DNA of 64,000 nt from Tubiluchus corallicola. Its lineage: Eukaryota; Animalia; Priapulida. The notes beneath the pieces were generated by a model that worked only from the letters and a program-made list of their open reading frames with translations, made no database searches and was not told the DNA's origin. The translations under genes were made by a program, and so were the position numbers. The DNA lies in the NCBI GenBank assembly GCA_030141605.1, contig JAQGDQ010000143.1, positions 124,001 to 188,000 on the forward strand. The letters are read 5' to 3'. Of this stretch, positions 2,195 through 38,573 are shown piece after piece; positions within the stretch are counted from its first letter, which is position 1, and every line of letters begins with the position of its first letter.

Positions 2195-2876
2195 ATGGGT
2201 ATTTTGCTAATGGTTCAATTTAAAGTAATCGTTTTTATAGCTTACGTGCATCTCGTGAGCAATGTAGCTGCGTTCACCATTAATGCATTCTCTCTTGTGG
2301 AAACTAACACTCCGTTTGGACACAAAATATCAGGACCTGGAATAGACCTTGGTTTTGAAGCAGCGAGAAGGCTCCTAAACAGTACTTTTGAAATAAAAAA
2401 TCATTATATTATCATTAAACCACAAGGCTGCATTCCTAGTTACATTGGCGCCATCGCAGCTGAGTTATACTGGACCAGGAATGTGTCAGTTTTCATTGGA
2501 CCTGGATGTAGTAACTCCCTCGTTCATCTGGGATACATGGCAGCTCGATGGAATCTTCCTGTTGTCACCGCTGCTGGTACTGAAGCTAAACTGGCTAATA
2601 AGAAAATGTTCCCAATTTTGACCAGACTTATATTCAGTAATCAGCAGACACTAAACGAATTCTATTTTAATATTTTGACATACTTTAGATGGAAACACTC
2701 AGCCATAATATTCGATCAAAACCATCGTATTTCGTTGATTATTGGCGAAAATGTGTACCGGATGTTTATAAATAATCATTATCCAAGTTTGCAGTTGGTG
2801 TTTAATACAAAAGCGAATGCGAAATACGAACAAACTGTTAAACAGCATCTAATGAAAGTTTCAAAGCACGCTAGAG
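2195..2876 (+). CDS. Receptor guanylyl cyclase variable first coding exon V1 (signal peptide + N-terminal half of ANF-receptor-type ectodomain)
   Basis: ATG 2195 and hydrophobic leader; motifs SGP, C..YIGAIAAE, VFIGPGCS, AARWNLPVVT, LANKKMFPILTR, YFRW. Ends CAC GCT AGA G|GTAAGA (phase 1), compatible with the exon at 18644. 682 nt; predicted isoform 1054 aa. Confidence 0.88.
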
Positions 2877-3027
2877 GTAAGATTTTATACATTTTAGGTA
2901 AACCTTTGAAGAAAATAAACGTCTTTTCCTGTCAGTAATTGGCGGAAATGTTTATTGGTATGTTTTTATATATACGTTTTTTATATATATTTCCAAGTAT
3001 TTATTGTTTAATCGGTGATTATACTAC

Positions 3028-3112
3028 TATTATTATTATTATTATTATTATTATTATTATTATTATTATTATTATTATTATTATTATTATTATTATTATT
3101 ATTATTATTATA
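3028..3112. repeat. (TAT)n microsatellite
   Basis: Perfect trinucleotide run, directly visible. Confidence 0.95.
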
Positions 3113-3279
3113 AATCCTAACAGTTAGTTTTCAGATTTTTTTATATAAATGCATTTTTATTTTTTTGTTTGTGTACGAAGAGTACACAACGACGGATTTA
3201 AACGTTTGTGCCTTTTCATTTGTTTATTGTGCAATTTTTAAATTGATGTTCATTATGTAATATAAGGCATTATTTAATA

Positions 3280-33868: not shown

Positions 33869-33929
33869 TATATATATATATATATATATATATATATATA
33901 TATATATATATATATATATATATATATAT
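33869..33929. repeat. (TA)n microsatellite
   Basis: Directly visible. Confidence 0.95.
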
Positions 33930-34202
33930 GCTTTGTCCAGTTCACAAAGAAAGACTTAGTCACTGGAATTGGATTATTAACTGATTATGGTTTGGAAAGT
34001 GCCATTTTGAGAATCCAAGATGGCTGTCAAGCTGATTTTGAAAAAAATGAAAAGGTAATTTTTAGCTTAAGGCGGGTTCTTAGCTTTGCAAACATGTATA
34101 AGATATCTGATCTCCGATAATTTTGAACGAACCTTATGAGCAGTACATTACGTACTAGACTACATGCACTTTAAATGCCAAAACTGTTTTTGAACTTTGC
34201 AG

Positions 34203-37200
34203 AAATGCGGGTGGTAACATCTTGGATAACCTGTTGATGAGAATGGAGAGATACGCCAATGACTTAGAAGTATTGGTGGATGAGCGAACTGAGGCTTTCC
34301 TAGAAGAAAAGAGAAAGGCGGAAGAGTTACTGTACCAAATTTTGCCCAAGTAAGAAGTTTTTTGAGAACAGCTCACGAGTCTTGTGTTACCGCACAAGTA
34401 GATATTATGCGCATATGTAATGTACAGGGTGGTCTCAAAAGAAACAATGTAATATTAGGTACTGTAAACATACCAGTACTACGCCATACAAAATCAAATA
34501 AGCATAGTCATATTTATATTGGAATGTATCAAAATCAAGTTGTTGTAGTACAATCTCTTACTATAGCACACTAAATCTCTCTGTAGCACTTAATTTCACT
34601 TTTCAGTTCAGCATATTTTCGTGTACCTACTGCATTGTTTTTCTGGAACACATTGTGTGTAAAATTATAAAAATATTATATTATGCAGTTGAACTATATA
34701 TTGCTAATTGTGCACATGAATATTTTCGAAATGTATATAATAAATTCATAAGTATTATATAATTATGGCTCATGACATTGAGCCAGACAGACAAATCTCA
34801 ATACGGATAGTCTGTTCTTTGCCATTCCGTTGCCATTTGCTCAGCACCGTTTTATTCTATTATGTTATTTACAGCTTTATGTTTCATATGTAGATCTGTG
34901 GCAGACGAGCTAAAGCAGGGCAAGGCTGTGGCAGCTGAAGCCTATGATAGCGTCACTATTTACTTTTCTGACATCGTGGGTTTTACCAGTTTGTCTGCTG
35001 AAAGTACTCCAATGCAGGTATGCATACAATGTCAACTGCTGTGATTAAGTTTAGAGTGGACTACTATAGAGAATTAAAGTATTAACGTAGTGGACTACTG
35101 TAGAAAACTAAAGTGTTAACTTAGACGTCATGCACTAACGATTTCTTCTGATGTTCCAATCATCAATAATTTAGCTCAGTCCAGTCACGTGTTGTCGTTG
35201 TCCACGTTAATCTTGGACATATTCAAAAATTCACGTTAACTCGCAAACGCAGTGGATCGGTTAACGTCAAGAAACTTGCAGAGTAGACACTTCATATTGA
35301 CAATGACTTGGTCAACAGTGATCTCGCTGAAAGGGTCAAGGATACTGTCATCGGACATCGGTCAATTCGAGTTATGAATAACACGAAAAACTGCATAGAG
35401 CCAAGAAACTAGAGTAGATATTGATATAGAGACTTAGACAATGGTAATGATAAAAAAGCTTCGACTGTTTAAGTTGAGGACCAGAGATAGGAGCAAAAGT
35501 GTGTAAATTAGGGCAAACTGCCCACTGTCCAGTCACATCTAAGTAAGTAGTATCGTAGCAGGTGTAGTTAAGTCATAAAATTTATTATCTACATGCATAT
35601 TTTTCACTTTCAGGTAGTCGACTTGCTCAATGACTTGTATACTTGCTTTGATGAGATAGTTGACGTTTTTGATGTTTACAAGGTAAGATAAACGCAAAAA
35701 CATGGTGTAGTTTTCTATCGTCTTACAAAACACCATGTAAAATTTACTACGTGACGTTATTTTATCATCATCAATAATATTAAATTTAACAACAAATTTA
35801 TCATCAAAGCGAAAATCAGTATGTACGAATTGTGGTGTATAACATCGTGTCTTGCTGTTGAAATAATTAAAATGAAAATAAGCCATGTTTATAATAAAAT
35901 CAGCATTTCGGACACCATTAACACTGAAACTGTCCAATCTGACATTGGCAATACATTCCTAAACCGTATAAACGCAATATTGAACAGAAAGCCTGGAAAA
36001 TATTGAACATTTACTGGTACTGGAACTCAAGACATCTGCTGTATGAATAAGATTACTCACAATGATGTAATTCACTCTAGTAGTAGTAATAGTAACAGCA
36101 GTAGCAGTAGTCATCGTCGCCGTCGTTGTTGTTGTTTTGTTGTTGTTGATATGTCAATACTGACAATATTGAGTAATAGTATTATAGTCGTGGTAGTCTA
36201 TTTTTTCATTTTTAAACATACAGTGCAGTTATTACGTAAACTTACACAAGTTCACTATTATTTTCTGAGTAAATTTTGTTGCTGCAGCTATAAATTTGAA
36301 TGCGTTACGTTCTGTAGTCAATGTCGTTTTAGATACTGCACTTCAATATGGAGTTATATGTTTTTCTCAGGTTGAAACCATAGGAGACGCCTACATGGTT
36401 GTGTCTGGTCTACCTGAAAGAAACGCAAACCTTCATGCACGTGAGATAGCTCGCATGAGCCTCTGTTTACTAAGCACCATTCAAAAATTCAAAATCCGTC
36501 ATCGACCAAAGGAAGTGCTGCAACTACGCATTGGATTGCACTCTGGTAATATACCCATAACCCCGATTACGAAGAAGATAAGGGACCTATCCTGCATCTA
36601 CTTCATCCCTTTCACATTTTTAATGACGTTCTATTTACACTACTACATGTGAATTTGTTTTGCCTCTGTGTCATTATTAAAAACTCACTGTCAGGGCCCC
36701 GCGGCCGCACTGCAATGAAAAGTGTTTGGTCAGGTAATGTATATGTATATACTATGCTTGTTTCGCTTTTCGCTTTGATGTTCTTGTCATTCGGAGCATA
36801 TGTACGCACCATGATGTTGACAATAATAATTGCGCAAAAATATTGATTAACATTTTCCTCCATTTTCAACAAGCGCTCAACATTGTTGCATTAATCGGCA
36901 TGGACTGCATGTTTCAAAAAAAGAAAGTTGTTTTTCGAAATTAATGTTTTAAAATGACCAGTGTGTATAGTTTGTTTTATACTGTGTATGTTTCTCCTGC
37001 GTGCACCGAGTACCCTGTATAGTGTATACCGCGCTTTTCGATATTTATAGAATCCACAGAAAATTACATTTCTCTGATATAAGTGCAAAGTTTCCTAGCA
37101 ACGCTTGTTTGATTTTGCTTTCAGGTCCATGTGTAGCTGGTGTAGTAGGACTAAAAATGCCACGATATTGCCTATTTGGTGATACTGTTAATACAGCATC

Positions 37201-38573
37201 CAGAATGGAATCGAATGGAGAAGGTAGGCGAATATACACGTGAATGATGTACGAATCACTAAATAAAATGCGAGATTCGAGTTAGGCTAATGCATAAATA
37301 CGCATCAGTTAATGTCAAGATTGTTACTAATGATGTTACAAGCTCAAATTTTGACCACAAACGTGAAATACAGGACTTCTGAAAAAATTGGGATACAGCC
37401 TGAATTTCAACCGGAGCCTTCTGGTTACAAAGCAGACACTTAGGTCATTAGGCCACCGTATCCCCAGTAATCAAGGCAGTGAGAAGTTCATCTCTTAGGC
37501 GCATAGCTGGCCAACCGAGATCGCTCACATTAGAGTGATTCTAACTAATTAGACAGAATGTAATTAGACAGAAGTTAGACAGAGTGTATTAGACAGATAA
37601 GTTAAAATTTTATATTTTGTTTGATTAAATTTTAGACTGAAATTTAAATTTGAGCCGTCGTTTATAGAAAGCACGCGTCGTTTTTCTAAAGCACGTGTCA
37701 TTTTTAGGGAGACGAACTCAGGAAAATGAACGAGGTTTTTCACCCAATCATGTTTCAAGAATTACGACCCGTTCTTTTTGTGTATCAAATTGCAGAAAAA
37801 GTACATGTCATTAGTTAGTGGGCGGGTATAGTAAATCCAAGAGGAATTTCTAAAAGCATGCGTGTAGTTATTATAGCGTGCGTGAACCTCTCGCTATTTC
37901 GTACTAATTCCCGGCATTAAAAACCTATTTAAAAATTTCTTTCTTTTAAATCTAGAACGAAGTAGAAACATCGCAAAATTAAACGTATTTTTATCATCTT
38001 CTTTGACCATGAAACTTGAATGTATCTTCTTTTTATCTTTAAAATCATTTTAGCAATGAAGATTCATCTGAGCGCAAACACAAAAGAGACACTTGAAAAA
38101 TTCTCCACATTTCAGATTGAACTTCGTGGAACGATTGAAGTAAAGGTGAGTTATACATCAAAATTACGGTGCAAATAATTTTGATCAAGCAGTTCAGCTA
38201 TATAGAAATATCTACAAACTACATAACTCACTTACTCAAAATTCTTTGTGCATAATTACGATTTGATCTAACTTAGATGATGGACGCAGCCTGATCAGCC
38301 ACCAATTATGTAAAGTTAACACGCAGTTCAGATTCTAAATCACGAAACCAACTTACGGATTTTTGCAATAAAAAATCGTTGTATTCAGCGGGGGGAATAA
38401 ATGAAATTGTATAGAAATATAAAAAGGAATAATAAAAAGGAGACCGTTTAAATTTATTTGGTTTATTGTTTTAGGGTAAAGGCTTTGTAACAACGTACTG
38501 GCTGAACGGAGAAGAGCCGGCTTATGTTCCTCCTGAAAACAAGTCCAAACTGATAGCAAAAGAATCCTTTTAG
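34203..38573 (+). CDS. Receptor guanylyl cyclase constant exons C13-C19 (coiled-coil hinge and guanylyl cyclase catalytic domain)
   Basis: Exons 34203-34349, 34894-35017, 35614-35682, 36371-36545, 37125-37223, 38054-38145, 38475-38573 (TAG). [85 protein letters not shown]. The Glu and Cys that confer GTP specificity are present. Confidence 0.96.
34425..34655. mobile_element. Possible Tc1/mariner-type MITE
   Basis: Starts TA|CAGGGTGGTCTCAAAAGAAACAATG, with an imperfect inverted end cattgtttttctggaacacattg. Confidence 0.3.
37395..37480 (-). mobile_element. tRNA-derived SINE-like head, degenerate
   Basis: Similar to 26345-26420. Confidence 0.4.

Follow-up and report, generated by a model that had tools for sequence, protein, structure and literature searches.

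The 64,000-nucleotide stretch of Tubiluchus corallicola DNA analyzed here (contig JAQGDQ010000143.1, positions 124,001 to 188,000; hereafter the window) contains a gene for a receptor guanylyl cyclase of the natriuretic peptide receptor (NPR) type in which three intact, paralogous variable first exons, V1–V3, precede a single set of constant exons, C1–C19. Each V exon is likely to have its own promoter and to be spliced to the constant exon at 18644, and with good confidence the locus is read as producing three receptors that differ in their predicted peptide-binding surface.

Variable exons and constant region

The three variable exons are located upstream of the constant region as follows.

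V1, 2195..2876, + strand: 682 nt; predicted signal peptide and N-terminal half of the ANF_receptor (Venus-flytrap) domain; phase-1 donor
V2, 10460..11126, + strand: 667 nt; anatomy as in V1
V3, 17613..18282, + strand: 670 nt; anatomy as in V1; 361-nt intron to C1

Each V exon begins with an ATG, is free of stop codons, has a length of 3n+1, and ends at an AG/GT boundary that follows a homologous Arg codon and one further base. The three are tandem paralogous first coding exons of one phase and similar length, spaced 6.5–7.6 kb apart, with protein identities of 37–44%. All match the N-terminal part of the Pfam ANF_receptor profile (E-values of 2e-16 for V1, 1e-17 for V2, and 6e-20 for V3), and V3 has the highest family-profile score (96 bits vs 79 and 77). 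Scored with a matrix derived from the 18 constant-exon donors, the donors of V1, V2, and V3 rank at the 99.6, 99.8, and 99.0 percentiles, respectively, among the GT sites of positions 1–38600. A signal peptide of its own had been assigned to each V exon in the original prediction; hydropathy, the sole basis of the assignment here, supports it, with the peptide of V3 less clear, its most hydrophobic 11-mer beginning at residue 24. Because the window begins 2.2 kb upstream of V1, additional V exons may lie upstream of it.

Nineteen constant exons, at 18644–38573, were built from Mytilus homologs and a profile of full-length relatives. Every acceptor is AG, and every donor is GT.

C1, 18644..18939, +: sole phase-1 partner; continues ligand-binding domain (NPR-A about 209–311)
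C2, 22249..22384, +: ectodomain
C3, 23061..23152, +: ectodomain
C4, 23860..24001, +: end of ectodomain, juxtamembrane cysteines
C5, 24459..24543, +: transmembrane helix
C6, 24663..24777, +: juxtamembrane; donor choice uncertain
C7, 25424..25501, +: weak acceptor; boundary uncertain
C8, 25721..25795, +: kinase-homology domain
C9, 26662..26838, +: kinase-homology domain
C10, 28017..28173, +: kinase-homology domain; Asn at the catalytic-Asp position of active kinases
C11, 28969..29124, +: kinase-homology domain
C12, 31271..31439, +: end of kinase-homology domain
C13, 34203..34349, +: dimerization hinge
C14, 34894..35017, +: start of guanylyl cyclase domain
C15, 35614..35682, +: cyclase
C16, 36371..36545, +: cyclase; Pfam Guanylate_cyc
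C17, 37125..37223, +: cyclase
C18, 38054..38145, +: cyclase
C19, 38475..38573, +: last coding exon, with stop

C1 resumes the ANF_receptor profile at position 180 of 353, and in silico splicing yields V1, V2, and V3 models of 1054, 1049, and 1050 aa without an internal stop. The domain order, an ANF_receptor ectodomain, a single transmembrane segment, a kinase-homology domain, a hinge, and a cyclase domain, is that of an NPR-type receptor guanylyl cyclase. The Asn of C10 presumably marks the kinase-homology domain as a pseudokinase, and the cyclase domain carries metal-binding, guanine-specifying, and transition-state motifs. Judged by its sequence, the window gene is an NPR-type receptor guanylyl cyclase, predicted to synthesize cGMP upon ligand stimulation.

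Neither six-frame hmmsearch --max (3408 pieces) nor tblastn found any constant exon in duplicate on either strand of the window. The same profile search, together with tblastn using the V and constant sequences of the window, found no extra or relic V exon in the window, and the best tblastn match outside the modeled exons has E=0.17. The gene has one constant exon set, and none lies between the V exons. The original prediction is reproduced here in its description of three paralogous, stop-free 3n+1 exons at 2195, 10460, and 17613 with a homologous Arg junction, in its one phase-1 partner exon (18644) and one set of 19 constant exons, in its protein lengths of about 1054, 1049, and 1050 aa, and in its statement that no constant-exon copies intervene between the V exons.

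Variable part and the ligand-contact surface

Residue 3 of C1 aligns to residue 212 of NPR-A, which places the V/C1 junction at NPR-A 208/209 and makes the V part equivalent to about residues 1–208. In the available portion of one report (bioRxiv 10.1101/2020.07.09.196394), 18 receptor residues from both monomers, Asp62 to His195, contact ANP or DNP; all 18 of these named contacts (span 62–195) fall in the V-equivalent part of NPR-A. NPR-A contacts in the docking tables of the accessible part of a second source occupy the same range (PMC9699598). Six of the named contact positions can be mapped by alignment, and five of the six differ among the V exons. The residues of V1/V2/V3 are P/S/A at NPR-A position 62, N/D/F at 88, Y/H/L at 95, E/S/K at 111, and M/F/R at 119, with F in all three at 120. 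Both cysteines are retained in V1, V2, and V3. By homology, each V exon is predicted to encode a signal peptide (from hydropathy) together with the recognition region (from the NPR-A contact mapping). The predicted pockets of V1–V3 differ, which does not show selection for difference because an overall identity of ~40% makes differences expected anywhere. V corresponds to about half of the domain, and its folding would depend on the constant exons.

Constraint on the variable exons

The V exons have been under long-term constraint by purifying selection, because silent sites are saturated while frames, family residues, and donors persist, and because simulated neutral decay at 0.1 substitutions per site seldom leaves the frame and donor intact. 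Synonymous differences reach proportions (pS) of 0.84–0.85, compared with nonsynonymous proportions (pN) of 0.38–0.41, in all three pairs (190–195 codons). Positions conserved in the family are kept at 27/32 in V1, 26/32 in V2, and 27/32 in V3; the median is 26 for 65 homologs, which were drawn from the best 80 of 150 matches after short, multi-unit, and long-leader rows were dropped. In simulations of neutral decay at 0.1 substitutions per site, the ATG, frame, and GT survive in 1–3 of 2000 runs. An IQ-TREE codon model placed branch lengths at the ceiling and gave no usable omega. Long-term neutral evolution of V1 and V2, named in the original prediction among the outcomes telling against it, is contradicted by the pS/pN contrast and the kept family residues, which point to purifying selection.

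Two sequencing runs were compared with positions 8700–28600. In run X2, presumed to be RNA, nine partial records match; the eight listed all fall on repeats, and the 15 of 26 joints shown include no splice joint. In run X1, which behaves as DNA, depth is 11–15 in the V region and 6–22 in the constant region among 8 of 573 pieces; no 3-fold step between the two regions is visible among these pieces, depth here being no measure of copy number.

The same junction in other animals

The homolog search returned many mollusc proteins annotated "ANP receptor 1-like isoform X" in separate 90% clusters. Within a species, the first 220–260 residues of these isoforms differ and the remainder is identical, and the switch is homologous to the V/C1 junction of the window. 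For 11 of the 14 mollusc species sets, the annotated isoforms of a single NPR-like gene show at least two V types (2–6 N-termini); over the shorter sequence their constant parts are 100% identical, whereas identity between V parts is 22–76%. Counted from partial lists with cluster members added, and leaving out proteins with a V part under 60 residues or lacking the junction motif, distinct V types number at least six in Mytilus edulis (9 proteins) and M. trossulus (7), at least five in M. galloprovincialis (8) and Mercenaria (5), at least three in M. californianus (5), Biomphalaria (5), and Patella vulgata (4), and at least two in each of four oysters. RefSeq isoforms are normally based on RNA-seq. 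In addition, one complete 1078-aa oyster isoform is encoded on a single 4547-nt Logan contig, which, we infer, must be spliced RNA. Among some mollusc isoforms, the juxtamembrane region is a further site of difference, of about 9 residues. A V-V-C reading of Mercenaria isoform X1 was dropped in favor of one V with a long N-terminal extension.

The swap is also annotated in amphioxus. Isoforms X2 and X3 of Branchiostoma floridae LOC118405741 have V parts that are 48% identical, and beyond the same junction their remaining 447 aa are identical; a laminin-G domain interrupts the ectodomain of both, and neither has a cyclase. The protocadherin/UGT1A-like layout proposed in the original prediction is supported by these mollusc and amphioxus isoforms. 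One addition can be made to the original prediction, whose author knew of no such arrangement in receptor guanylyl cyclases: it is present in public annotations of other NPR-like genes, and no paper remarking on it was found in the literature covered.

Ab initio annotations often split or fuse V exons. Fused V units are found in such models from M. coruscus, Bulinus, Lingula, Branchiostoma lanceolatum, and Polypterus, and because of these fusions a tandem order of V units is suggested for other animals. The B. lanceolatum model has three tandem V units. The Polypterus senegalus protein KAG2462139.1, annotated "ANPRA partial," has two tandem exon-1-like units that are 68% identical and may represent duplication of NPR first exons in a vertebrate. 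A homolog search returned neither Polypterus nor Lingula isoforms of full length. Gene models of Lingula, Bulinus, and Patella caerulea contain only one or two exon-1 units, and models of this kind are likely the annotation signature of V clusters. In a V-profile search, 34 of 72 matches of 200–300 aa end shortly after an Arg at or near the junction (a loose pattern), most of these 34 in the way that read-through into a conserved phase-1 intron would produce.

Relationship to the mollusc gene

In an unrooted tree of 46 V regions, V1–V3 form one clade (99/97) within a larger group, and that group is separated (100/99) from every clustered V type of the molluscs. This ancient mollusc gene has some V types that are orthologous between bivalves and gastropods. 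Unrooted constant-region trees place the window gene outside the mollusc clustered clade, and forcing it into that clade is rejected (p-AU 1.6e-64; approximately unbiased test, quick tree, 24 rows). A grouping of the window constant region with "other" mollusc paralogues lost support when taxa were added; the exclusion from the clustered clade held. Orthology with the mollusc clustered NPR-like gene was rejected, the constant region lying outside the clade and the V exons not being interleaved, and no orthologue of the window gene was found in the homolog and representative searches. Because the window gene falls outside the mollusc clade and its V exons form a clade of their own, its expansion is taken to be separate from that of the molluscs and is likely independent, as judged from these trees. 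An older clustered ancestor with later turnover may also account for the pattern.

Proposed mechanism and alternatives

Exon 1 would have been duplicated in tandem, making use of an ancient phase-1 intron. By analogy with UGT1 and Gcnt2, each V exon would have its own promoter and be spliced to C1, and the active promoter would pick the V exon because the 5′-most donor of a transcript would join C1. Since V covers the ligand-contact residues, ligand preference or affinity would vary from isoform to isoform, as probably would the tissue of expression. These receptors are dimers that hold the ligand between two ectodomains, so isoforms expressed together could pair into as many as six dimer types, all with identical intracellular modules.

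Several observations weigh against this reading. The isoform precedent comes from paralogous genes rather than from an orthologue, 3 of the 14 mollusc sets (Mizuhopecten, Ylistrum, and P. caerulea) have one V type among the listed proteins, and the best relatives of the window V exons are only 41–44% identical. TATA-like boxes are found upstream of V2 and V3 only, and no exact word of 7–10 nt is shared beyond chance by the three 1-kb upstream regions (vs 412 random triplets), a weak test with three sequences. Acceptor-like AGs (94th–98th percentile) are found within 300 nt upstream of every V ATG, at 2089 for V1, 10437/10452 for V2, and 17434 for V3, and because of these the V exons may be internal. 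The AG at 10452 lies 8 nt upstream of the V2 start codon and shares the frame of the V1 donor, and a V1-V2-constant product is possible on paper. The main rival builds on the internal placement: one promoter would drive a shared noncoding leader exon upstream, or trans-splicing would supply a leader, and this leader would be followed by any one of three internal, mutually exclusive V exons, with all isoforms still made. The missing common motif and the 3–4 transcript accessions carried by each of several mollusc isoform proteins, which suggest variable 5′ untranslated exons, favor this scheme as do the AGs. However, a best AG at the 94th–98th percentile in 300 nt is estimated to be about what chance gives, the 6.5–7.6 kb spacing of the V exons fits separate promoters, and the UGT1 and Gcnt2 variable exons each have their own promoter according to the available part of PMC1885805, where the UGT1 variable exons are also described as having a conserved motif upstream, a feature accessory to such clusters and not part of their definition. 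The shared leader is considered unlikely, if the strongest of the alternatives.

That only V3 is used, with V1 and V2 as recently dead remnants of partial or whole-gene duplications, is improbable. V3 is closest to C1 and has the top family-profile score, and in the simulation a dead exon still looks intact in 22–48% of runs at 0.01–0.02 substitutions per site; any death of V1 or V2 may thus be only very recent. However, V1 and V2, with no constant region to themselves, would have had to remain under selection until synonymous sites were saturated and then die recently; their donors outscore that of V3, and the window holds no relic constant exons. Least credible are two further proposals, to which equally little weight is given. 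In one, V1 and V2 each form a gene of a single exon whose product is a secreted half-ectodomain. If the donor is read through, just 20 (V1) and 17 (V2) codons follow before a stop, and an AATAAA is present at 2914; this signal, however, precedes the V1 read-through stop, and none occurs within 1 kb after V2. Both exons also keep near-consensus donors, and each covers no more than roughly the N-terminal half of the ANF_receptor profile (353 positions), which would be unlikely to fold alone. In the other, three tandem whole genes had their downstream parts merged by assembly collapse. The silent sites of the V exons are saturated and their flanks do not align (blastn of three region pairs gave one 140-nt exonic match), so near-identical downstream halves would need continuous gene conversion, and the same layout is found in chromosome-level annotations of other animals. 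Separate promoters feeding one constant region are the preferred reading.

Neighboring features in the window

Downstream on the + strand, 43897–48557 has weak cuticlin N- and C-domain matches (E 0.015 and 0.024, below cut-off) followed by a transmembrane segment and a long tail, and is a probable ZP/cuticlin-like gene. A multi-exon gene at 52017–55903 (+) has a DUF3987 match at 52017–52337 (E 5e-10), and a DUF1647-like gene (weak match, E 0.003) lies at 57187–61403 (+), with further exons near 59269 and 61059. The intron after C1 contains, at 21669–21829, a high-copy short element resembling a miniature inverted-repeat transposable element, with inverted ends, opposite-strand joints, and high depth in run X1.

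Implications

On a broader scale, we lean somewhat toward the view that NPR-family receptors are an unrecognized class of protocadherin-style clustered genes, with hidden repertoires built repeatedly by tandem copying of exon 1. If so, the entire surface that contacts the ligand is set apart in exon 1 by an ancient intron, and the copying has been repeated in the window animal, in molluscs (with at least six heads and conservation from bivalves to gastropods), in amphioxus, and perhaps also in bichir and brachiopods. Which peptide triggers cGMP production in a given cell would then depend on promoter choice and on heterodimers. Gene counts would understate invertebrate cGMP peptide receptors several-fold because one annotated gene can hide 3–6 or more ligand-binding heads. 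Such loci would provide a natural domain-swap series, with the same output and different heads, for finding ligands of orphan NPR-like receptors. The variable/constant cluster design would be extended from adhesion proteins and transferases to enzyme-linked hormone receptors, with repeated origin at one intron. The idea is testable now with existing RNA data at the mussel, oyster, Biomphalaria, and amphioxus loci.

Comparison with known systems

The window gene is similar to vertebrate NPR-A/GC-A, NPR-B, and NPR-C in domain order and ectodomain homology. Mammalian NPR genes have one first coding exon each, and exon 1 of human NPR1 and NPR2 presumably ends at the same phase-1 position as the window V exons. 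Natriuretic peptides themselves are confined to vertebrates according to the accessible part of PMC6878697. In the portions of the literature available, subscription journals and supplements being outside this scope, no paper was found to describe guanylyl cyclases or NPR-like genes with variable first exons. A term search of the accessible text of PMC1435932, PMC6878697, PMC9846370, and PMC1885805 gave no mention of them in NPR-like genes, with 0 occurrences of "exon" or "splice" in PMC1435932 and 0 of exon terms in PMC9846370.

As in UGT1A, UGT2A, and GCNT2 (available part of PMC1885805), the shared constant exons are preceded by paralogous first exons that are arrayed in tandem, similar in length, and in one frame, every variable exon supplies a signal peptide along with a recognition part, and expansion is lineage-specific. 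Unlike these genes, the window gene encodes a signaling receptor, its junction lies inside the ligand-binding domain, and no common upstream motif was found. Protocadherins alpha and gamma (same source) and chelicerate sDscam are similar in placing a variable ectodomain on a constant intracellular part, with possible combinatorial dimers. Protocadherin variable exons encode the whole ectodomain and the membrane helix and serve homophilic adhesion (in part from the accessible text of PMC3216661), whereas a V exon of the window encodes half an ectodomain, a soluble ligand is the likely partner of the receptor, and the constant exons code for an enzyme. Comparable in design are the mollusc "atrial natriuretic peptide receptor 1-like" gene (e.g., Mytilus edulis XP_071139402-421) and Branchiostoma floridae LOC118405741, which share the junction, the divergent N-termini, and the identical remainder. 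The mollusc gene differs in being another paralogue with V types common to bivalves and gastropods, and the amphioxus gene differs in its laminin-G insert and lack of a cyclase. Variable-first-exon clusters are a known design; their occurrence in a guanylyl cyclase receptor gene is apparently undescribed and recurrent across animals.

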